From Methanocaldococcus jannaschii DSM 2661 (lineage in GTDB: Archaea > AGJL01 > Methanococci > Methanococcales > Methanocaldococcaceae), in contig NC_000909.1 of the NCBI RefSeq assembly GCF_000091665.1, positions 152,871 through 184,870 on the forward strand: a stretch of 32,000 nt of DNA, given 5' to 3'. Positions 1,773-25,474 of the stretch are shown piece after piece. A program made the translations under genes and the position numbers. The notes under the pieces are model-generated. The model made no database searches, was not told where the DNA came from, and saw only the letters and a list, made by a program, of their open reading frames with translations. The stretch's first letter is position 1. The number at the start of each line of letters is the position of its first letter.

Positions 1773-4792
<3,020 letters not shown>

Positions 4793-4800
4793 TTTCACCG

Positions 4801-4824
4801 GGATGTGGAAGCCTATGCATGGCC
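4801..4824 (-). other. 5' half of the 23S pre-rRNA processing stem
   Basis: GGATGTGGAAGCCTATGCATGGCC is a perfect 24-nt complement of 1741-1764. Confidence 0.85.
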
Positions 4825-4834
4825 CTCATGTTTT

Positions 4835-4928
4835 TACGGGACTTTCGCAGTTTGTAATATTTATAAGGTAGTGAGATGCTGAAAGCATCAATTACCAAAT
4901 AAAAATTATTTCCTGCGAAAGTCCCGTA
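4835..4928 (+). repeat. TIR element copy A (94 bp) in the tRNA-Ala/23S spacer, antisense to the operon
   Basis: Perfect 16-bp terminal inverted repeat, TACGGGACTTTCGCAG (4835-4850) and CTGCGAAAGTCCCGTA (4913-4928). Central hairpin GATGCT-GAA-AGCATC at 4875-4889. Same layout as copies B and C. Confidence 0.8.
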
Positions 4929-4940
4929 TCAGGCCCTTCA

Positions 4941-4964
4941 CCTGCAACTCTTTGGAGTTGCAGG
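4941..4964 (-). other. Perfect 10-bp hairpin in the spacer just 3' of tRNA-Ala
   Basis: CCTGCAACTC-TTTG-GAGTTGCAGG, ending 12 nt from the tRNA 3' end. Confidence 0.7.
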
Positions 4965-4976
4965 CTGCATATATAG

Positions 4977-5049
4977 TGGACCCGGTGGGATTTGAACCCA
5001 CGGCCTCCGGCTTGCAAGGCCGGCGCTCTCCCAGCTGAGCTACGGGCCC
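4977..5049 (-). tRNA. tRNA-Ala (anticodon UGC), CCA not encoded
   Basis: The reverse complement is GGGCCCGTAGCTCAGCTGGGAGAGCGCCGGCCTTGCAAGCCGGAGGCCGTGGGTTCAAATCCCACCGGGTCCA. It folds as a cloverleaf with the G3:U70 alanine identity pair, a CTTGCAA anticodon loop and a GGTTCAAATCC T-arm. Confidence 0.95.
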
Positions 5050-5060
5050 ACTTTCCCTAT

Positions 5061-5102
5061 GAGGCAAGCCCACGACTGGTTTGGTGCCCCGCAGCAACCA
5101 GC
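5061..5102 (-). other. 3' half of the 16S pre-rRNA processing stem
   Basis: GAGGCAAGCCCACGACTGGT..CCCCGCAGCAACCAGC is complementary to 6634-6676. An unpaired middle segment (TTGGTG versus TTTCACC) is consistent with a bulge-helix-bulge site. Confidence 0.8.
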
Positions 5103-5113
5103 GCTTTTTTCTC

Positions 5114-6589
<1,476 letters not shown>

Positions 6590-6606: not shown

Positions 6607-6633
6607 CGCAAGAAAGGATAAACCTTTCTTGCG
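6607..6633 (-). other. Perfect 11-bp hairpin in the 16S leader
   Basis: CGCAAGAAAGG-ATAAA-CCTTTCTTGCG lies between the mature 16S 5' end and the processing stem. Confidence 0.7.
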
Positions 6634-6676: not shown

Positions 6677-6811
6677 AGCCCCAACCCCTCCGGATTGGGG
6701 ACGCATCCCTCAAGTGCATCCTATAACGAGAGGTTGTTATATGCAACGTTTTTAGGAATAGAACAATAATTTGAATAAATTATTAATACATGCTATGAGA
6801 GAAGATTATTG

Positions 6812-6909
6812 TAATAGGACTTTCGCAGGAATAAATTTTTTATTGCGTATTGACACCCTCTGGGTGTCTAAGTTCCAAATTCAATATATAAATTGCGAAA
6901 GTCCTATTA
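6812..6909 (-). repeat. TIR element copy B (98 bp) upstream of 16S, with its TATA box reading toward the operon
   Basis: TIR TAATAGGACTTTCGCAG (6812-6828) and TTGCGAAAGTCCTATTA (6893-6909), 16 of 17 positions complementary. Central hairpin GACACCC-TCT-GGGTGTC at 6852-6868. The minus-strand stretch TTTATATATTGAATTTGGAAcTTAGA is nearly identical to copy C. Confidence 0.8.
6885..6892 (-). promoter_or_regulatory. Candidate TATA box of the rRNA operon (inside TIR element B)
   Basis: The minus strand reads CGCAATTTATATATTG, an exact TTTATATA box and the best TATA match upstream of the 16S leader. The predicted start, about 23 nt downstream, falls in the hairpin loop near 6860. Confidence 0.5.
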
Positions 6910-6933
6910 TAAAATATTTGGAGCGTGGGATAC

Positions 6934-7281: not shown

Positions 7282-8406
7282 ATGCTCTCCGACTATGAGG
7301 AGTTTTTAAGATTAGAGAAGGCAAGAAAAATTATCTTAGAAATATTAAATGAAAAGGGTAGAGATGCATTGTATGACTTAAGTGGATTGTCAGGAGGGTT
7401 TTTAATAGATGAAAAAGATAAAGCTTTATTAAATACCTACATTGGGTCATCTTACTTTGCAGAGAAGGTTAATGAATATGGGCTTAAACATTTAGGTGGA
7501 GATGAGAATGATAAATGTGTTGGTTTTAATAGAACATCATCGGCAATTTTAGCCACTATATTGGCATTAAAACCAAAAAAAGTTATCCACTATCTACCAG
7601 AACTTCCAGGACATCCATCAATAGAGAGAAGTTGTAAAATTGTTAATGCTAAGTATTTTGAATCTGATAAAGTAGGAGAGATTTTAAATAAAATAGATAA
7701 AGATACTCTAGTTATTATCACTGGTTCAACAATGGATTTGAAAGTTATTGAACTTGAAAACTTTAAAAAAGTTATTAATACAGCTAAAAATAAAGAAGCT
7801 ATTGTCTTTGTTGATGATGCCTCTGGAGCGAGAGTTAGGTTGTTATTTAATCAACCTCCAGCATTAAAATTGGGAGCTGATTTGGTAGTTACAAGCACAG
7901 ATAAGCTTATGGAAGGACCGAGGGGAGGTTTATTAGCTGGAAAAAAGGAACTTGTTGATAAGATATATATTGAAGGCACTAAGTTTGGCTTAGAAGCTCA
8001 GCCCCCTTTATTGGCTGGTATATATAGAGCTTTAAAAAACTTTAACTTAGAAAGAATTAGAAAAGCATTTGAAAGGGCTAAAAACTTTGATTTATCTAAG
8101 ATTGAAAAATTAAACAAAGAGCTTAAGGCAATAGATGATAATATAAATATTGTTTATGAAAGAACACCAACGGGATTTGTAATAAAAAGAGTTTATAAAG
8201 ATGACACTATAAATATTAAAAAACTCATTGAGATTGGGTTTAATTTGTTAAAAAATTATGGAATTATAACTATAACCGTGGCAGGTATGCCTGGGGCAAG
8301 TAAAAGTTTAAGGATTGATTTAACATCAAGGGATGCTGAAAGGATTGATGATAATTATATAATAAAGGCAATAGTTGAATCAATAAAAATGGCTTTTAAA
8401 TCTTAA
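7282..8406 (+). CDS. PLP-dependent SelA-like protein (aminotransferase fold, UPF0425-type)
   Basis: 374 aa with a GGTGAT SD. It has the motif [10 protein letters not shown]...[15 protein letters not shown] with a candidate PLP lysine. I recall this as the M. jannaschii MJ0158-type protein. Confidence 0.75.
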
Positions 8407-8440: not shown

Positions 8441-8467
8441 TTAAATATTTTTATAACTCTTTAAATC
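8441..8467 (-). pseudogene. 27-bp diverged duplicate of the nrpR 3' terminus (..DLKSYKNI*)
   Basis: TTAAATATTTTTATAACTCTTTAAATC matches 8554-8580 (TTAAATCTCCTTATAACTCTTTAAATC) at 24 of 27 positions, stop codon included. Confidence 0.75.
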
Positions 8468-8468
8468 C

Positions 8469-8524
8469 ATAGGGGAAGCCCCTATTGGGATACCCGAGCG
8501 GGGCTTCACTTCGTTCAGCCCCAC
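8469..8524 (-). ncRNA. Candidate small structured RNA: GC-rich double hairpin in the nrpR 3' flank
   Basis: This is the only sizeable GC-rich island outside the rRNA operon. Hairpins are ATAGGGG-AAG-CCCCTAT (8469-8485) and GGGGCT-11 nt-AGCCCC (8500-8522). Read on the minus strand, the second hairpin extends with a G-U pair and has the GA-AC-GAA-GT-GA core. Confidence 0.4.
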
Positions 8525-8553
8525 TTTAATGAGAGTATTTAGGATATATGAGT

Positions 8554-10173
8554 TTAAATCTCCTTATAACTCTTTAAATCTGAAAATCTAACAACTTCAT
8601 GCATTGCCTTTAACTCAATAGGTATTTCATTCTCTTTCAATAACACTAAGGGATTTATTCCCCCCATTGTTACAACTCCACACATGTCTTTATTCACGCC
8701 AATACCATAAAGTTCATTGTTTGGCTCTCCTATAGCTTTAATACCATTCCAATTTAATTTCTTTAAAACTTCTTCTAATTTCTCTCTTGCAACTCTATGC
8801 ACTTCCCTAAATCCTGCCAAAAATGTTTTTTCACAATCAACAAAATTAAAGAAAACTTCATGAGGGTCTAATGACGAACCATCATAACCAATTATATCAA
8901 TAAACCTCTCCTTATCTTCAGTTATCTCCAAAATCCCCCCATATTTTGGTATGAGAGGAACTGAGTTTCTTAAAAATATTCCATCTAAGGTTACAGCACA
9001 GATTGTTTGAATTTTTATCCTATCATTTTCTTCAACAATTCCAAATCTGTCGGATATGCCTAAACCTTTTTTATATGCCTCTTTTAGTATATCAAATGCC
9101 TCATCAAGGTATTTTTTATCGATAAATGCAGTATTTACTATAACATCTCCATCAGCTTCATCTATATCATAGGTTACCTTTGCCATTGCATTGAACATTT
9201 TTGATAAAGCGGTTTTTATTCTTATATTTGCCTTCTTTGTTACTATATCCCTTGGATTCTTTTTAAGCTTATGGAGAGATTCTAATCTAACAATTGATGA
9301 CATTGGACAAATTTCAACGCAGTAGTTGTTTTCAACAAATGGAGCTATTGGTGTTAGACCTCCAATTAAAGCGACTCCCACCTTATCATCTCCAACATCT
9401 AATCCTAAAACATTTTCTGTCCCATAACTAATAATACATTTTAATTCATCTATCTCCAATATAGTCTCAAATCTCTCCAAAAACTCAACTCCAAAGTATC
9501 TAAAGTTTGCTGGTAAATAACCCTCCCCATTCTCTATAATACCCATAACATCTGTTTCTTTCTTCTCAATAAATGCTCTCAATGGGTCTATAGATGTAGA
9601 TTTGTAATCTATAATTTCTTTAAATTCTACTGGTTTTCCATCCTCATATTTAACAACTCCAGCACATACATGGAGTGGAAAAATGCCATTTTGTAGTAGG
9701 ATATTATCAAAGTTTAATGAGCAGAGGGTATTTATTTCCACGAATTTTTCCCTATCTATAATTCCAACTCTATCCCCAACAGCCAAACCAGACTCATAGA
9801 CACTTTTTATTATTTTTAACACATCATTAAAGTCTGCATAAACCTGACATCTGTTGATAACTACATATCCAAACCTATAGTTGGCAGATATTGTTTTTTC
9901 CAATATATTCGAGTAAATACTCCCCAGTCTATAAGATATATTAGCTTTCTCCAACTCCTCTAAACCTCTCTCAGTTATAACCCTTCCAGCATAACCAACT
10001 TTTTTTGTTAATTTCATCCCATCCAATAACTTTAAATGATATCTCACAGCCCTCTCTCCAATTTTATAACCCCTCTTATTAAGTTCTTTAGCTATAATTT
10101 TAGCCCCTACAGGCTCTTTTGATTTAGATAAAATATCTAAAATTTCTATTAACTTCCTATCAAGGTCTGCCAT
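8554..10173 (-). CDS. nrpR: Nitrogen regulatory repressor NrpR (wHTH plus two NrpR regulatory domains)
   Basis: The N-terminal winged-helix region is LDRKLIEILDILSKSKEPVGAKIIAKELNKRGYKIGERAVRYHLKLLD, followed by two repeated roughly 230-aa domains. The start is moved from the GTG inside GGTGA to ATG 10173. Confidence 0.85.
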   Translation of the reverse strand: MADLDRKLIEILDILSKSKEPVGAKIIAKELNKRGYKIGERAVRYHLKLLDGMKLTKKVGYAGRVITERGLEELEKANISYRLGSIYSNILEKTISANYRFGYVVINRCQVYADFNDVLKIIKSVYESGLAVGDRVGIIDREKFVEINTLCSLNFDNILLQNGIFPLHVCAGVVKYEDGKPVEFKEIIDYKSTSIDPLRAFIEKKETDVMGIIENGEGYLPANFRYFGVEFLERFETILEIDELKCIISYGTENVLGLDVGDDKVGVALIGGLTPIAPFVENNYCVEICPMSSIVRLESLHKLKKNPRDIVTKKANIRIKTALSKMFNAMAKVTYDIDEADGDVIVNTAFIDKKYLDEAFDILKEAYKKGLGISDRFGIVEENDRIKIQTICAVTLDGIFLRNSVPLIPKYGGILEITEDKERFIDIIGYDGSSLDPHEVFFNFVDCEKTFLAGFREVHRVAREKLEEVLKKLNWNGIKAIGEPNNELYGIGVNKDMCGVVTMGGINPLVLLKENEIPIELKAMHEVVRFSDLKSYKEI

Positions 10174-10219: not shown

Positions 10220-11626
10220 TTATTTATCTAATCTCTCTTTCAATAACTCAATGACTCTCTTTGGATCTGCCCTTCCCCTTGTTAATCTCATTACTTGCCC
10301 CATTAAGAAGTTCAATGCCTCTTTTTTACCATTTAGATAATCTTCAACTGCCTTTGGATTGTTTTTAATAGCTTCCTCAACCGCTTTAACTAAAGCGTCT
10401 TCATCTCTAATAACTGTTAATCCAAGCTCCTCAACGAGTTCTTTAGGCATCTTCTTTCCTCTATTTATAACCAACAAATCAACAATCTCTTTAGCTATTT
10501 TTTGAGATATAACCCCCTCTTTAATTAGCTTTATTAATTCAACTATATGCTCTGCCTTAACCCCACTCTCATACAAATCTACTTTGTGATACTGTAAAGA
10601 CCTCCTCAACTCATTTCTAATCCATGTAACTGCCAAATCAACATTTTCCTTATTAACACCTAAGGATTTAACAACTTCCTCAAACATTTCAGCCATATCT
10701 AAGTCAGAAACTAATACCTTAGCATCCTCTTCATCAATACCATACTCTTCAACAAATCTTTTCTTCTTAGCTAATGGTGTTTCTGGCATTTTTTCCTCTA
10801 TTTCCTTAACCCATTTTTCAGAGATGACTATTGGCTGAATGTCTGGGTCTGGAATATATCTGTAATCTTCAGCAGTCTCTTTACTTCTCATTGCCTTAGT
10901 TATCATCTGACTTTCTAAGAATGCTCTTGTTTCTCTTTTAACCTCTCCCCCTCTTTTAATAATGTTTTTCTGTCTGATTAGTTCATATTTTAGAACTTTA
11001 TAAACCCCTTTAATTGAATTGACGTTTTTAACCTCAACCCTATTTCCTTGGACTCCCATATATTCAATGGAAATATTTACATCAGCCCTCATTGTTCCTT
11101 CTCCTCTTAAACAGCCAAGGTATCTGAATAATGTCATCAATTGCTTTAAAAATTCTCTTGCTTCTTCTGGGCTTTTTATATCTGGCTTTGTAACAATCTC
11201 AATTAGTGGGGTTCCGCTTCTGTTATAATCAACAATTCCAAAACTTGGGTTGTACTGCCCAGGGTCTTCCTCTAAATGAACCTCATGTATTCCAATACCC
11301 ATAAACTCTCCATCTACTCCAATAGGGGTTGAAGTTCTCTGATAACCGCTCGGTAAATCTGGATAATCATAATGCTTTCTTTGGAAGTAAATATCTTCAT
11401 CAACAACTATTTTACAACCAAGCATCTTTGCAACCATTATTGCAACTTCCACTGCCTTTTTATTTGGTGGGAGTGGTTTTGCTCCAGGCAATCCAAGACA
11501 GACAGGACAAACATTCGTGTTTGGCTCTGCATCTAAATAATTCGTTGAGCAGTTACAGAATAATTTTGATTTTGTATCAATTTGAACATGTATCTCCAAA
11601 CCACACTTCATTTTAACATCTTCCAT
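10220..11626 (-). CDS. gatB: Asp/Glu-tRNA amidotransferase subunit B
   Basis: KCGLEIHVQIDTKSKLFCNC...VCPVCLGLPGAKP and the rest of the sequence are typical GatB. The start is set at ATG 11626 (MEDVKMK) behind a GGTGGAAAT SD. The track start at 11638 includes the SD. Confidence 0.9.
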   Translation of the reverse strand: MEDVKMKCGLEIHVQIDTKSKLFCNCSTNYLDAEPNTNVCPVCLGLPGAKPLPPNKKAVEVAIMVAKMLGCKIVVDEDIYFQRKHYDYPDLPSGYQRTSTPIGVDGEFMGIGIHEVHLEEDPGQYNPSFGIVDYNRSGTPLIEIVTKPDIKSPEEAREFLKQLMTLFRYLGCLRGEGTMRADVNISIEYMGVQGNRVEVKNVNSIKGVYKVLKYELIRQKNIIKRGGEVKRETRAFLESQMITKAMRSKETAEDYRYIPDPDIQPIVISEKWVKEIEEKMPETPLAKKKRFVEEYGIDEEDAKVLVSDLDMAEMFEEVVKSLGVNKENVDLAVTWIRNELRRSLQYHKVDLYESGVKAEHIVELIKLIKEGVISQKIAKEIVDLLVINRGKKMPKELVEELGLTVIRDEDALVKAVEEAIKNNPKAVEDYLNGKKEALNFLMGQVMRLTRGRADPKRVIELLKERLDK

Positions 11627-11651
11627 ATTTCCACCCATTAAATTTTAATTT

Positions 11652-11679
11652 ACACCTCCGAGCGTAAGCGAGGAGGTGT
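11652..11679 (+). repeat. GA-bulged hairpin copy 2
   Basis: ACACCTCC-GA-GC-GTAA-GC-GA-GGAGGTGT has a perfect 8-bp outer stem and lies between the gatB start and the gatB 5' remnant. Confidence 0.8.
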
Positions 11680-11698
11680 TAGTTTTGATGAAACTTTA

Positions 11699-11764
11699 TT
11701 AAATTTTCACGTGCATTTCCAAACCACACTTCATTTTAACGTCATCGTTCATGTTTCCACCTTA
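11699..11764 (-). pseudogene. Diverged duplicate of the gatB 5' end (SD plus 17-codon mini-ORF MNDDVKMKCGLEMHVKI*)
   Basis: A 23-nt exact core (11718-11740 equals 11595-11617) has flanking similarity that includes the GGTGGAAA SD and the ATG (11752). It carries a one-codon indel and then a stop. Confidence 0.8.
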
Positions 11765-15750: not shown

Positions 15751-16521
15751 TTACTTATGCATTATCTTAGCTATCAATCCTGCAAATACACCTGCTCCAA
15801 ATCCATTATCAATATTAACAACCGCTATTCCAGGAGAACATGAATGCAACATAGTTAACAGAGGCGTTATTTTTATCCCATAAGATGTCGATGTTGGAAC
15901 TCCAATAACAGGAATATCAACCATTGAGGCGATAACTGAAGGTAAAGCTCCCTCCATACCAGCAACAACAATAATACAGCAAACATCTTCCTCAATCATT
16001 CTTTTTAAAGCTGGAAACAGCCTGTGAATGCCTGCAATTCCTACATCATAAGCAGTTATTGCTTCAACTCCCATTATTTCTAATGTGTCTTTTGCCTCCT
16101 CTGCCACTGGAATATCTGAGGTCCCTGCTGTTAATATACCCACTTTACCTATTTTTTTTACTTCATAGTTTTTATTTTTTATTATTAATGTTTTCGCTTT
16201 TTTGTTAATTTTTATGTCGTAGTTTTTTAAATTCCACTTCCTAATTTCGTCACTAAGTTTTTCAATATCTTCTATTTTAGTTGCTAACGCTATGCCATTT
16301 TTTTCTACAAGTTTTAGCGTGGCTTTAATTATCTCATCTATATCTTTTCCCTTACCATAAACAACTTCTGGAACTCCTGTCCTAAACTGCCTGTTTATAT
16401 CCAACTTTAATCTTTCCTCAATCTCTTCATAATAGTTAAGCTTTATCTGTTTTTCAATTTCATCTAAGCTTATATCTCCATTTTTAAATGCTAAAAGTAA
16501 ATCTCTTAAATTTTTTCCCAT
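15751..16521 (-). CDS. LarB-like / PurE-related (AIR carboxylase family) protein
   Basis: The C-terminal domain GILTAGTSDIPVAEEAK...IIVVAGMEGALPSVIASMVDIPVIGVPTS is typical of the NCAIR-mutase-like LarB family. A GGAGGG SD is present. Confidence 0.75.
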   Translation of the reverse strand: MGKNLRDLLLAFKNGDISLDEIEKQIKLNYYEEIEERLKLDINRQFRTGVPEVVYGKGKDIDEIIKATLKLVEKNGIALATKIEDIEKLSDEIRKWNLKNYDIKINKKAKTLIIKNKNYEVKKIGKVGILTAGTSDIPVAEEAKDTLEIMGVEAITAYDVGIAGIHRLFPALKRMIEEDVCCIIVVAGMEGALPSVIASMVDIPVIGVPTSTSYGIKITPLLTMLHSCSPGIAVVNIDNGFGAGVFAGLIAKIMHK

Positions 16522-16553
16522 TCAATTCCCTCCAAAACTTTTAGAAAAAACAT

Positions 16554-17321
16554 TTAAACTCTTTCCCATTCGATTCCATTATTTTCAAAAAATTCAATAT
16601 ATCTCCTTTTATCATCTCCCCTACATCCCTTCCAATCAATAAGAGCTTTATCCACTTCCATCTTACTGATAAGTTGATTTAAAACATCCTCAGACACTGA
16701 GGCATATTTTGGAACTAAATAGCCAAAATAATATTTATCCTCTAAAGCAAGTTTTGTAAATTTTGGAGCATAATGCCCTCCACCAAAGCCAATAGCTCTA
16801 ACTTTTTTATCATAATTTTTGGATTTCATTGCATCTATTGTTTCCAAAACAGATTTAGCAATTATCTCTCCAGCCTCTTTTAAAATCCACTCTTTTTCAC
16901 TACTTCCAATTTCAACAAATACTGTTGGAGCTTTTAAACCGGTTGGAGAGTGATGAACTACCTCAAAAGAGACATCAAACTCTCCAATCTTCCCATCCTC
17001 ATAGTATGTTTTGTAATTTTTGTAAATGTTTTTTAATAAAAGAGTATTTAAAACAGCATCACATGGACAAACTTCCTTAGGATTTCCTCCAAAAGTATTA
17101 TCTTCAGTTAAATTTCCGGGCGTATGGACTGTTAGGGATGGTTTATTTGCAATACTTTTATGCTTTGATAAAAATATATAGTAATCTGCATACTCCAAAT
17201 CTTCTGCAGTTAGAGATAAAAGCTCCTTATCAGTTTCAAAAACATCAAAATACTCTTTTATATGATTAGCTATGTTTTTACTTGCTAAATCTTTATTTGA
17301 TGCTATTAACAAAAATTTCAT
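16554..17321 (-). CDS. dtdA: Archaeal-type D-aminoacyl-tRNA deacylase (DTD2)
   Basis: Motifs VVHHSPTG, VEIGSSEKEW, GGGHYAPK and DWKG match the archaeal DtdA family. Confidence 0.8.
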   Translation of the reverse strand: MKFLLIASNKDLASKNIANHIKEYFDVFETDKELLSLTAEDLEYADYYIFLSKHKSIANKPSLTVHTPGNLTEDNTFGGNPKEVCPCDAVLNTLLLKNIYKNYKTYYEDGKIGEFDVSFEVVHHSPTGLKAPTVFVEIGSSEKEWILKEAGEIIAKSVLETIDAMKSKNYDKKVRAIGFGGGHYAPKFTKLALEDKYYFGYLVPKYASVSEDVLNQLISKMEVDKALIDWKGCRGDDKRRYIEFFENNGIEWERV

Positions 17322-19181: not shown

Positions 19182-19265
19182 TTAATTATCATCCTTTTCC
19201 AAATAAACCGTATATGTTGGGAACGCCCTCTCAATGAACCTTTCAGTAAAAGCTTCACCAAAAAT
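19182..19265 (-). pseudogene. Diverged duplicate of the MscS-channel gene 3' end (..GEAFTERFIERAFPTYTVYLEKDDN*)
   Basis: The core 19192-19232 aligns with 19308-19347 of the intact gene (..EEFEKEGIEMAFPTYTVYLEKDN*), with several substitutions and one extra codon. Confidence 0.8.
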
Positions 19266-19269
19266 GGAT

Positions 19270-19296
19270 GCATCATCTCGCTTTGCTCGATGATGC
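19270..19296 (-). repeat. GA-bulged hairpin copy 3
   Basis: The minus strand reads GCATCATC-GA-GC-AAA-GC-GA-GATGATGC, starting 3 nt after the channel gene stop. Confidence 0.8.
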
Positions 19297-19299
19297 CTC

Positions 19300-20352
19300 T
19301 TAGTTATCTTTCTCCAAATAAACAGTATATGTTGGGAATGCCATCTCTATCCCTTCTTTTTCAAATTCCTCTTTTATCTTCAAATTTATTTCATCAACGG
19401 CATTTAAATAGTAATCAAATCCCATGTTTCTAACAAAGTATTCTACCCTCAAATTTAAACTCCAATCTCCATATTCCCTAAAATGCACTCTATATGGAGG
19501 GAGAGTAGCTGGATGATTTTCAACAATCTCTTTTATTATCTCCTTAGCCCTCTTAATTTTCTCTACCGGTGTGTTATAAGTTAAACCGATAGTCATTAAA
19601 ACCCTTCTTCTATCTCTAACTGTTAAGTTTTCAATGGCTGAATCCAACAATTCTGAGTTTGGGATAGTTATTAAAGTGTAATCAAAAGTTCTAATTCGTG
19701 TGCTTCTTATTCCAATCTCCTCTACAATCCCTTCAGCCCCTTTAACTTTAACCCAATGGCCTAAACTAAAGGGTTTGTCAATCAATATTAAAATCCCAGC
19801 AATGAAGTTTTTTATGGTGTCTTGCATAGCCAAAGCTAAAGCTAAACCCCCTACTCCTAAACCAGCCAATAAAGCAGTGATATCATAACCAACAGAGCTT
19901 AAAGCCGTTAATATACCAAGAAGTATTGTTAATATCTTTACAACTTTTTTCAATGGCTTTATTATGTGTTCGTCCAACTCTGTTTCTGTCTTTTCGGTTA
20001 ATGGAATTAGGTAGTGTTCAAATATCCCATCAATAAATTTAACTGCAAAATATGTAGCCGATAAGATAACTACAACTTTTACTGCTTCATCTATCAACTT
20101 GAGTATATAATCTGGCAGAATTAAAAATCTTAACCCAAAATAGAAAAACAATGTAACTACTAACACAATAATTGGTAAATCAATAGACTCTAATATTATA
20201 TCATCGAATTTTGTTTTTGTTTTATCTATGATTTTTTTGAGATAATTTCTAACTATTTTATCCACAATTTTTCCAATGAAAATACCCAATAGAGTTATAA
20301 CAACAAAAATAAGTATATTAGATATGCTGTTCCCAAAAATTTCCATATTCAC
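19300..20352 (-). CDS. Small-conductance mechanosensitive channel (MscS family)
   Basis: It has N-terminal TM helices, the pore-lining GGLALALAMQDTIKNFIAG, and a beta domain. ATG 20346 behind GAGGTGA may be the true start. Confidence 0.88.
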   Translation of the reverse strand: MNMEIFGNSISNILIFVVITLLGIFIGKIVDKIVRNYLKKIIDKTKTKFDDIILESIDLPIIVLVVTLFFYFGLRFLILPDYILKLIDEAVKVVVILSATYFAVKFIDGIFEHYLIPLTEKTETELDEHIIKPLKKVVKILTILLGILTALSSVGYDITALLAGLGVGGLALALAMQDTIKNFIAGILILIDKPFSLGHWVKVKGAEGIVEEIGIRSTRIRTFDYTLITIPNSELLDSAIENLTVRDRRRVLMTIGLTYNTPVEKIKRAKEIIKEIVENHPATLPPYRVHFREYGDWSLNLRVEYFVRNMGFDYYLNAVDEINLKIKEEFEKEGIEMAFPTYTVYLEKDN

Positions 20353-24524: not shown

Positions 24525-24620
24525 AATAGGACTTTCGCAGTTTATATATTGAATTTGGAATTTAGATGCCTAAAAGGCATCATTTTCCTTATAGAGATTT
24601 ATTCCTGCGAAAGTCCTATT
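24525..24620 (+). repeat. TIR element copy C (96 bp) between convergent pelota and translin-like genes
   Basis: Perfect 16-bp TIR, AATAGGACTTTCGCAG (24525-24540) and CTGCGAAAGTCCTATT (24605-24620). TTTATATA lies at 24541-24548 and ATGC at 24566-24569. Hairpin GATGCCT-AAA-AGGCATC at 24565-24581 is followed by TTTT. Confidence 0.8.
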
Positions 24621-25316: not shown

Positions 25317-25358
25317 TGCAAACCTGAAAAGCCCGGGTAGGGCAATGACAGGTTTGCA
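25317..25358. other. Composite hairpin (10-bp stem, internal loop, GC clamp)
   Basis: TGCAAACCTG-AAAA-GCCC-GGGTA-GGGC-AATGA-CAGGTTTGCA. Confidence 0.6.
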
Positions 25359-25361
25359 AAA

Positions 25362-25465
25362 TATAGTGTCTTCCAAAATCAATAAAATTAATTTAAGGAA
25401 CATTGAACGCCTTTAAGGCGTTCATTAATACCTTAGTTATTTCAAAAGTTTTGAAAGACACTATA
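25362..25465. repeat. 104-bp long imperfect palindrome (MITE-like or cruciform)
   Basis: The outer arms TATAGTGTCTTCCAAAA and TTTTGAAAGACACTATA are complementary at 16 of 17 positions. The inner hairpin is TGAACGCC-TTTAA-GGCGTTCA (25404-25424), flanked by AAGG../..CCTT. Confidence 0.6.
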
Positions 25466-25474
25466 AAAAAGCTA

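Follow-up and report, generated by a model that had tools for sequence, protein, structure and literature searches.

Hairpins with a tandem GA loop as the probable core of small insertion elements at Methanocaldococcus gene boundaries

Among described genomic repeats, those closest to the elements treated here are MITEs (miniature transposable elements with inverted repeats), the bacterial repetitive extragenic palindromes and their interspersed mosaics (REP/BIME), the att-site duplications of tyrosine-recombinase integration, and the palindromic repeats of Methanocaldococcus jannaschii (MJRE). The subject is a family of intergenic hairpins met in a 32,000-nt stretch of M. jannaschii DSM 2661 (NC_000909.1, positions 152,871 to 184,870; hereafter the window), each built from a variable outer stem, a GA dinucleotide on both strands, a 2-bp inner helix and a small loop (CCGAGCGTAAGCGAGG, as DNA or RNA form). 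This GA/GA hairpin probably serves as the conserved core of a family of insertion elements, small, non-coding and non-autonomous, at Methanocaldococcus gene boundaries; the mechanistic details, namely duplication at insertion and recognition of a folded single strand, are far less secure. The elements measure ~65-95 bp, with composites up to ~170 bp, and are assembled from the GA hairpin and a second, AT-rich one ('Hc'), to which some copies add the modules 'Ha' and GGGTATCCC. They look like small mobile DNA rather than dedicated regulatory RNA, since they lie at gene boundaries and each is flanked by a duplicated neighbouring gene end.

Like MITEs, the elements are small, non-coding, dispersed in multiple copies, close to genes and missing from empty sites in relatives; eight loci in at least eight genomes agree with that description. 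MITEs, however, carry fixed target duplications of 2-10 bp, whereas those of the GA-hairpin elements are ~13-75 bp and vary by locus, and no transposase-bearing parent was found. Terminal inverted repeats were not seen at the ends of the youngest copy (L211, where L numbers denote sampled loci: TTTCTAAGAG... ...GGTTGTTATC) or of other copies, and the loci hold no parent element. REP/BIME share with the elements an intergenic mosaic of short imperfect-palindrome modules in variable combinations and orientations, a structure that is kept while the sequence drifts, and hairpin mismatches that give strand asymmetry; they differ in being bacterial, mobilised by RAYT (Y1 HUH) transposases, marked by a GTAG-type tetranucleotide and without target duplication, none of these being seen in the GA-hairpin elements. 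Long duplications, no common flanking tetranucleotide and the presence of the three window copies on both strands within 11 kb likewise set the family apart from IS200/IS605-derived palindrome-associated elements (PATE) and from REP/RAYT. With att-site duplications at gene or tRNA 3' ends the elements have in common direct repeats of tens of bp that contain a gene terminus, with an intact gene and a redundant copy; the inserts, however, are 66-95 bp and encode nothing, and a site-specific recombinase is unlikely because every locus has a different 'att'. A CRISPR-like repeat-spacer-repeat arrangement (duplication ~30-37 bp, insert ~35-40 bp) was also considered and rejected, as the 66-95 bp inserts have conserved sequence and the duplications span 13-75 bp.

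Suyama, Lathe and Bork (FEBS Lett 2005) are said to have described 141 palindromic repetitive elements in M. jannaschii, in groups MJRE1-3. These resemble the GA-hairpin elements in being ~100 bp, non-coding, hairpin-rich and mostly extragenic, in that some touch coding regions without destroying them, and in low identity between copies; by description only, the GA-hairpin elements differ in that they are not palindromes over the whole element, are without terminal inverted repeats and have long target duplications. Such duplications have reportedly not been noted for MJRE. Stems of the GA-hairpin elements differ too much for simple similarity searches, and the elements may or may not be included in MJRE; that they form one of the MJRE groups is a real possibility, if a less probable one than the contrary. 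In that case the novelty would lie in the anatomy: how the modules are put together, how long the duplications are and which rule the orientation obeys. The MJRE paper (Suyama et al. 2005) is cited in PMC2229807. No description of GA-hairpin elements was found in the literature searched, and an Rfam scan gave only rRNA and tRNA at the gathering threshold, with none overlapping the three sites at E up to 10; the earlier note on this DNA, made from its letters, had likewise recognised no described element.

The three copies in the window are as follows.
8500-8522, minus strand: GA hairpin copy 1, GGGGCT-GA-AC-GAA-GT-GA-AGCCCC, at the nrpR 3' site
11652-11679, plus strand: GA hairpin copy 2, ACACCTCC-GA-GC-GTAA-GC-GA-GGAGGTGT, subfamily A
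19270-19296, minus strand: GA hairpin copy 3, GCATCATC-GA-GC-AAA-GC-GA-GATGATGC, subfamily B

All three are present exactly as the earlier note had written them, and its structural description is accurate. Outer stems measure 6, 8 and 8 bp; the claim that they have no common sequence holds among the window copies only, and in other genomes the stems form sequence-related subfamilies. Copy 1 is identical at the orthologous site of a metagenome-assembled genome (MAG L002), copy 2 is identical at an unrelated M. bathoardescens locus (L214), and stems related to copy 3 appear as GCATCACC in L211, GCATTACC in L204 and GCATTGCC in L185. A pattern scan of both strands (stem, GA, 2 bp, loop of 3-6 nt, 2 bp, GA, stem) returned exactly three hairpins in the window, and still only three with the outer stem relaxed to 3 bp; dinucleotide-preserving shuffles gave a mean of 0.08 matches per window with stems >=5 bp (maximum 2 in 300 shuffles) and 1.47 with stems >=3 bp. 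The sole match of the strict pattern in 1.2 Mb of other archaeal loci is the orthologous L002 copy.

Each hairpin lies within a 66-86 nt insertion, on either side of which stands one copy of a directly duplicated gene terminus (27-60 nt), and the three flanking duplications are the strongest three local direct repeats in the window. The intact (T1) and redundant (T2) copies, the inserts and their second hairpins are these.
8554-8580, minus strand: nrpR 3' terminus, intact copy T1
8468-8553, minus strand: site 1 insert at the nrpR 3' end, 86 nt, with an AT-rich left part, the GA hairpin, the GGGTATCCC mini-hairpin and a second hairpin, ATAGGGG-CTT-CCCCTAT
8469-8485, minus strand: that second hairpin, module Ha (ATAGGGG-CTT-CCCCTAT), abutting the redundant nrpR copy
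8441-8467, minus strand: nrpR terminus, redundant copy T2, 24/27 identical, frame and stop kept; shorter than the 43-nt L002 copy
11579-11635, minus strand: gatB 5' end and ribosome-binding region, intact copy T1, 57 nt
11636-11701, plus strand: site 2 insert between ilvN and gatB, 66 nt, with a left arm, the GA hairpin and the right arm TAGTTTTGATGAAACTTTATTA
11690-11708, plus strand: second hairpin module Hc at site 2, GAAACTTT-ATT-AAATTTTC, degenerate and extending into the redundant copy
11702-11761, minus strand: gatB 5' end, redundant copy T2, 49/60 identical, which reads MNDDVKMKCGLEMHVKI followed by a stop and directly adjoins the region of the ilvN stop
19306-19350, minus strand: mscS 3' terminus, intact copy T1
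19236-19305, minus strand: site 3 insert at the mscS 3' end, 70 nt, with a CTAAGAG left end, the GA hairpin, ATCCATTTTTGG and the Hc hairpin
19236-19256, minus strand: Hc hairpin at site 3, GAAGCTTT-TACTG-AAAGGTTC
19191-19235, minus strand: mscS terminus, redundant copy T2, 39/45 identical; in its 3' part and in the flank downstream it does not differ from the one copy that L001 has

That each hairpin is flanked by an intact terminus and a duplicate of it, as the earlier note proposed, is borne out at all three sites; its word 'decayed' needs qualifying, since the duplicates have kept a reading frame and a stop codon, as MNDDVKMKCGLEMHVKI-stop (gatB), DLKSYKNI-stop (nrpR) and IERAFPTYTVYLEKDDN-stop (mscS). 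The site 2 insert opens with TAATAA on the gatB-sense strand, terminating the redundant gatB start, and the CTAAGAG left end of the site 3 insert supplies the mscS stop codon. Judged from alignment, the true gatB start is probably the second ATG, since relatives align from residue 5. The spacers of the three sites are no more similar to the adjacent coding sequence or outer flank than shuffled controls, and the sites are thus read as insertions with duplication rather than as large tandem duplications; a tandem duplication of 113-126 nt with a decayed middle was ruled out on the same ground. BLAST for an origin of the spacers elsewhere in the sampled DNA found orthologous copies only. A constant insert plus duplicate unit of ~115-125 nt (Okazaki- or nucleosome-sized) was discarded as well, being true of the three window copies only; other loci range from 111 to ~160 nt.

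Orthologous regions of relatives were fetched with GatB, the beta-CASP protein and histone as anchors. Clean empty sites in sister genomes identify the elements as insertions. The mscS site is empty in L001, L003, L204, L205 and L207-L211, both window copies of the terminus map to one same 45-47 nt stretch of L001 and L003, and mscS and minD lie 0-29 nt apart in three MAGs and in M. bathoardescens, 16A, M. vulcanius and FS406-22. At the gatB site the element is absent in every relative examined: ilvN and gatB nearly abut in L011, L082, L083, L085, M. indicus and FS406-22, and 16A and 28A have an unrelated MITE-like insert at the junction instead. The nrpR site is empty in L001, L011, L204 (M. 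bathoardescens), L208 and L210, whereas L002 has the insert there, its hairpin unchanged and its duplicate longer, at 43 nt (40/43 identical). In 16A (L003) and FS406-22 (L209) a homologous nrpR insert keeps the second hairpin without the GA hairpin, which is therefore a separable module. The Ha hairpin shows compensatory variants there, ATAGGGC-AAA-GCCCTAT in 16A and ATAGGGGG-TGAAA-CCTCTAT in FS406-22. The earlier note had held out structure-preserving substitutions in orthologous regions as a test of the family; orthologous sites show presence/absence polymorphism rather than conservation.

Covariance-model searching, which that note had proposed, was carried out with a model (R1) of six copies covering the GA hairpin and the second hairpin. 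Related copies occur at five further gene junctions (in M. bathoardescens, M. vulcanius, FS406-22, 10A, 16A, 28A and metagenomes), giving the eight loci in at least eight genomes. The model scores 50-92 bits on known copies, the best of them at 88-92 bits, with 88.7 bits at window site 2 (11643-11708) and 66.5 bits at site 3; over ~890 kb of partly redundant Methanococcales DNA it gave no other convincing copy. Density in the jannaschii/vulcanius group, estimated from the sampled DNA, is ~1 copy per 30-40 kb, and none was found in sampled loci of M. indicus, M. lauensis, Methanothermococcus and Methanotorris-related genomes. Copies and stems outside the window are the following.
L082 metagenome contig, 14 nt upstream of the ilvN start region: ATACCTCT-GA-GC-AAA-GC-GA-AGAGGTAT
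ADSL-cbiC junction of 16A and 28A, just after the ADSL stop codon: ACACCTCT-GA-GC-ATAA-GC-GA-AGAGGTGT
ADSL-cbiC junction of M. vulcanius, just after the ADSL stop codon: ACACCTCC-GA-GC-GTAT-GC-GA-AGAGGTGT
Strain 10A (L185), downstream of a methylase gene: GCATTGCC-GA-GC-GTA-GC-GA-GGCAATGC
TFX-pelota junction of M. bathoardescens, stem: GCATTACC/GGTGATGC
TFX-pelota junction of L208/L210, stem: GTATCACC/GGTGATGC
TFX-pelota junction of L211, stem: GCATCACC/GGTGATGC

The ADSL-cbiC junction also bears a copy in L189, and one metagenome relative has GG in place of the 3' GA; M. bathoardescens, a jannaschii-like contig and L190 have an empty site. At the pelota junction the FS406-22 copy is degenerate, with a different, fully paired tip (GCATTGC-TTCC-GTTA-GGAA-GCAATGC), and no element is present there in M. 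jannaschii, 16A or M. vulcanius. The M. bathoardescens copy in L214 lies between MarR-like and glycosyltransferase genes, at a site that is empty in 10A. Similarity extends beyond the hairpin: window site 2 and the 16A ADSL-cbiC copy are 89.8% identical over 59 nt, and window site 3 and the pelota-junction copies share the left end CTAAGAG and a right arm ATCCRTTTT...AAAGGTTS, showing that the element has defined ends common to independent loci (mscS, pelota). The composite copies of L185 and L214 combine the GA hairpin with Ha-related and GGGTATCCC modules as at window site 1, and the family is thus a mosaic of hairpin modules. Beside the ADSL gene of 16A, 28A and FS406-22 a gene-free stretch, presumably a CRISPR array, adjoins cas2/cas1/cas4 (L183 2774-6504, L184 4863-6508, L186 4629-6604).

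The length of the duplicated terminus differs between loci.
L214: about 13 nt
L185: 24 nt
nrpR: 27-43 nt
TFX-pelota: 35-44 nt
mscS: 45 nt
gatB: 57-60 nt
ADSL: 67-75 nt

Duplicates are identical in the youngest copy (36/36 in L211), nearly so in L002 (40/43) and M. vulcanius (67/72), and more diverged elsewhere; the identity of the youngest pair supports duplication of the target at insertion, which would give the topology seen. A direct duplication bracketing the insertion keeps the intact terminus at the element's left end and leaves the redundant copy beyond its right end. At the pelota junction the duplicated stretch comprises 13 nt from the end of TFX and 23 nt from the start of pelota, the outer copy being used by TFX and the inner by pelota; as each gene uses its own copy, insertion between the abutting genes harms neither. 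At ADSL and mscS the original last codons are kept in the outer copy only, and the gene now stops at a TAA that coincides with the element's left end or adjoins it. The duplicates recombine with each other, as is read from the ADSL terminus alleles, whose 3' halves sit in opposite positions in 16A and 28A (32/34 and 31/34 identities across positions versus 28/34 within position), and from the mscS site, a reciprocal mosaic relative to the single L001 copy, in which the intact copy joins the ancestral 5' part to a new 3' end and the redundant copy joins a new 5' part to the ancestral 3' end (7/8 substitutions between the copies are synonymous, with one in-frame indel). Both mosaics fit later exchange between repeats or strains, and also fit integration of the element by homologous recombination with a foreign terminus. 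Gene ends or flanks of the 'new type' without hairpin or duplicate occur in L186 (FS406-22, ADSL, 7951-8034) and L207 (M. vulcanius, pelota, 4565-4599), and are derived by deletion or else represent the native state of the lineage from which the allele came. By inspection, the last 6-10 nt of the right end resemble, at four loci, the part of the gene that immediately precedes the duplicated stretch on its upstream side, which hints at a microhomology-guided joint. A separate 31-nt direct repeat (16499-16529 and 16547-16577, 81% identical, spacing 48) lies in the window at the junction of D-aminoacyl-tRNA deacylase-like (PF04414) and PurE-like (AIRC) genes and looks like a stop/start overlap resolved by duplication; 16A and 28A have a TAGGAC-type repeat between the same two copies.

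Covariation was assessed on 11 distinct hairpin copies, with standard pairs counted against 500 shuffles. Standard pairs form in 98.2% of alignment cells, 9/10 base pairs have changed on both sides, 0/500 shuffles attain the observed values and slid registers fall to 25-50% paired, in agreement with the earlier claim of compensatory outer stems. Part of this covariation is shared descent, because the stems form related groups (ACACCTCY, GCATYRYC, GGGGCT). Invariance of the GA dinucleotides, also claimed earlier, stands for the 5' GA (11/11) and the 3' G, whereas the 3' A is kept in 10/11 copies (the other being the GG copy), so that GA is on both strands in 10/11, and the FS406-22 pelota copy has its different tip. 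The context is always pyrimidine-GA-purine on both strands (CGAG, TGAG, CGAA or TGAA), and at the tip a 2-bp helix closes a loop of 3-4 nt (GAA, AAA, GTA, GTAA, ATAA or GTAT). Stem irregularities amount to three G-T wobbles and one C-A mismatch, all transitions; at both informative loci they fall on the strand other than the local mRNA and therefore offer no argument for selection at the mRNA level. The second hairpin of the right arm covaries too (GAACCTTT-ATT-AAAGGTTC, CAACCTTTT-ATT-AAAAGGTTG, GAAACTTTT-TTT-AAAAGTTTC), its intact form GAACCTTT-ATT-AAAGGTTC being present in L183 and L187. At 8475-8507 (plus strand) the 3' arm of the copy-1 hairpin, GAAGCCCC, could pair with GGGGCTTC of the neighbouring hairpin as GAAGCCCC-TA-TTGGG-ATA-CCCGA-GC-GGGGCTTC, with the same layout of outer stem, 2x2 loop and inner helix on the opposite strand; this could be an alternative structure, or the trace of a module arising from its neighbour.

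A pyrimidine-GA-purine context favours tandem sheared G-A pairs in DNA and RNA, and with tips of the GNA/GNRA mini-hairpin type (5'-Y-GA-R-3'; d(GCGAAGC)-type) it gives very stable folds in both. The GA-hairpin copies share this context and the 2-bp G-C helix tip, a structural resemblance seen from sequence only. Kink-turns and kink-loops (K-turn, K-loop) are built otherwise: in the GA hairpin the outer stem pairs up to the GA on both strands, so that the internal loop is symmetric (2x2), and two conserved base pairs stand between GA and terminal loop. With no 3-nt bulge, and with this short helix set between its G-A pairs and its loop, the hairpin is neither a K-turn nor a K-loop, and the idea of L7Ae binding, raised earlier, lacks that defining bulge. 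A box C/D sRNA, considered on account of UGAUGA in the right arm and CUGA in one copy, was rejected, as the motifs are incomplete, wrongly spaced and not conserved between copies.

Orientation follows a rule. The earlier note stated that the GA strand reads from the intact terminus to the redundant copy; this holds at the three window sites, and orientation is fixed at all eight loci, where the element turns its left end, the 5' end of the GA strand, towards the gene with the adjoining intact terminus. The GA strand is sense after nrpR, mscS, ADSL and the 10A methylase gene, each of which converges on its neighbour or is followed by a spacer of 64-83 nt; it is antisense in L082, where the element precedes ilvN, and wherever co-directional genes are closely spaced (ilvN>gatB, TFX>pelota and MarR-like>glycosyltransferase). 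In the eight elements, runs of four or more T number 11 on the GA strand and runs of four or more A number 4; T4-T7 runs follow the hairpin by 3-5 nt in most copies, and a consensus terminator scan (bacterial type) flags none. Archaeal RNA polymerase terminates at oligo-T tracts, and orientation might, if only tentatively so, have been filtered by selection against termination within operons, the GA strand being sense solely behind the final gene of a transcription unit and antisense within operons.

In the mechanism proposed for these insertions, the duplication would be made at insertion, by widely staggered breaks with fill-in or by a microhomology-guided template switch, and the strand-asymmetric tandem G-A loop on its covarying stems would be kept because a folded single strand, more likely DNA than RNA, is recognised by the machinery that mobilises or maintains the elements. 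A bolder version is rather doubtful, if worth stating: a new kind of archaeal mobile DNA, in which a mosaic of hairpin modules, its ends not inverted repeats, would be copied into gene boundaries by a transposase-independent route (template switching where a fork has stalled, or the action of an integrase whose stagger is very wide), with target duplications up to 75 bp, the tandem-GA DNA hairpin serving as a recognition or stalling signal, and duplications allowing precise excision, re-integration and exchange of termini between strains. Several points weigh against the insertion-element reading itself. In the sampled loci neither a transposase nor any other protein that might mobilise the elements is linked to them, terminal inverted repeats are absent, and we know of no transposition mechanism that makes target duplications so long and variable. 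The mscS mosaic is equally explained by recombination with a diverged allele, and any reader of the strictly conserved GA is a putative one. The T-run asymmetry behind the orientation argument (11 versus 4) is modest; most aligned copies come from searches, by scanner or by model, in which pairing is a requirement, and this inflates the percentage paired, though not the count of compensatory pair types; and the copies tallied are those of the window and the sampled regions.

Two other explanations account for parts of the same evidence. Integration by Campbell-type or homology-facilitated recombination, in which a small circular or permuted DNA bearing the element and a foreign gene terminus integrates homologously and spreads by hitch-hiking, would explain the reciprocal mscS mosaic relative to L001 with its mostly synonymous substitutions and in-frame indel, the ADSL alleles swapped between positions in 16A and 28A, the hairpin-free 'new-type' termini of FS406-22 and M. 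vulcanius, and the retention of frame and stop codon in redundant copies. It is nevertheless unlikely: the path to a new gene is left unexplained, as each locus would need to capture a new terminus, double-stranded circles of 110-160 bp are physically awkward, the youngest duplicates (36/36, 40/43, 67/72) are as identical or nearly identical as duplication of the resident sequence would have them, and the mosaics could have come later, by exchange between repeats or strains. A cis-acting structured RNA, with tandem sheared G-A pairs and a role in protein binding, stability or termination in mRNA untranslated regions (an L7Ae-type site or a 3'-end hairpin, for instance) and with the duplications incidental, draws on the strong covariation around a nearly invariant GA/GA loop, on inserts that fold far better than shuffles (nrpR insert z = -3.4, ilvN-gatB insert z = -5.0; range over inserts -3.3 to -5.0), and on nrpR, mscS, ADSL and the L185 gene, where the GA strand is mRNA sense right after the stop codon with T-runs next. 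Presence/absence polymorphism and both orientations relative to transcription weaken it to the point of improbability: the GA strand is antisense at the remaining four loci, orthologous junctions of close relatives are without the element, and the hairpin is missing or replaced within orthologous insertions (nrpR in 16A and FS406-22, pelota in FS406-22). Absence of the K-turn bulge and of any Rfam match, and stem wobbles and a mismatch that lie on the non-transcribed strand no less often than on the other, point the same way.

Chance palindromes, or ordinary look-alike hairpins of terminator-like kind, are hardly credible and effectively refuted by the existence of homologous copies. A near-identical hairpin in a phage-like contig (L161) indicates that such hairpins can arise independently; against this, three were observed where 0.08 are expected, flanks are conserved and covariance-model scores reach 50-92 bits at eight loci, every copy is tied to an insertion, and the strict definition finds only the orthologous L002 copy in the other archaeal loci. 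The earlier conclusion that conserved structure bespeaks a functional RNA or single-stranded DNA structure, and not chance, is sound as regards a family defined by structure, but the hairpin is one module of a larger insertion and not a stand-alone RNA.

If the insertion-element reading is true, Methanocaldococcus carries tiny insertion elements, unlike classical MITEs, that land on abutting or overlapping gene ends and duplicate up to 75 bp of target, so that both genes survive, stop codons are supplied and repeat pairs are left for later recombination. It would explain the recurrent 'decayed duplicate termini' and short spurious open reading frames, such as a 38-aa Pelota_N fragment in L211, as well as assembly breaks at such sites, and how tightly packed operon junctions in hyperthermophile genomes are pried apart. 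The tandem G-A loop, nearly invariant on freely covarying stems, would be a candidate single-strand recognition signal; to our knowledge, no recognition system of this kind has been described in the organism. The elements do disturb assembly and annotation, since independent assemblies break at site 2 and L211 shows a gap and a miscall: several short-read contigs (Logan, same strain) end in or beside the element, with L167 starting inside the site-2 hairpin and L169, L171 and L173 starting 12 nt before the right arm, and the L211 duplication at the pelota junction led to a scaffold gap and to a spurious gene call for the Pelota_N fragment.

A viral origin was considered and rejected. Two scans of viral contigs gave only a phage-like contig (50% G+C, genes of bacterial type), another contig with 66% G+C and some AT-rich ones apparently unrelated to archaea, of which one resembles a eukaryotic giant virus; these matches are probably due to chance. 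The phage-like contig (L161, IMG/VR, with HicA/HicB- and ComF-like genes) has at 1180-1207, in an unrelated context, ACACCTCC-GA-GC-AAAA-GC-GA-GGAGGTGT, 26/28 identical to window copy 2. Convergence or chance probably accounts for it, as a rough estimate gives ~10 pattern matches expected in the collection, yet the extra matching stem pairs are curious.

Two MITE-like palindrome families with copies in the window, both bounded by long terminal inverted repeats, fit the MJRE description of a 'palindromic element' better than the GA-hairpin elements do.
6808-6919 and 24527-24619: family 1, TAGGACTTTCGCAG...CTGCGAAAGTCCTA
about 25368-25467, central hairpin 25404-25424: second family, TATAGTGTCTTCCAAAA...TTTTGAAAGACACTATA, its ends also given as TATAGTGTCTTYCAAAA ... 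TTTTGRAAGACACTATA

Family 1 recurs at L003 2970-3062, 4857-4950 and 11446-11556 and at L010 5030-5125, and occupies different places in different Methanocaldococcus genomes, apparently inserted at TA; it has a small central hairpin with compensatory stem variants (GACACCC/GGGTGTC, GATGCC/GGCATC) and is probably one of the published MJRE groups. The second family is also present in L083 (about 105-225). Just upstream of its window copy, at 25318-25358, lies a separate 41-nt hairpin, TGCAAACCTG...CAGGTTTGCA.

The genes of the window include, in a run, those for a UPF0425 protein, NrpR, GatB, the acetolactate synthase small subunit (ilvN), a beta-CASP RNase, a MinD-like ATPase, MscS and DNA ligase, with Pfam domains backing the NrpR, GatB and MscS assignments. 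The histone encoded in the window matches histone A1 of M. jannaschii DSM 2661 at 100% identity. The Rfam scan places one further feature.
1782-6589, minus strand: rRNA operon

Just upstream of its 16S rRNA gene, at 6607-6633, is a perfect 11-bp hairpin, CGCAAGAAAGG-ATAAA-CCTTTCTTGCG, which may be part of an rRNA processing stem.

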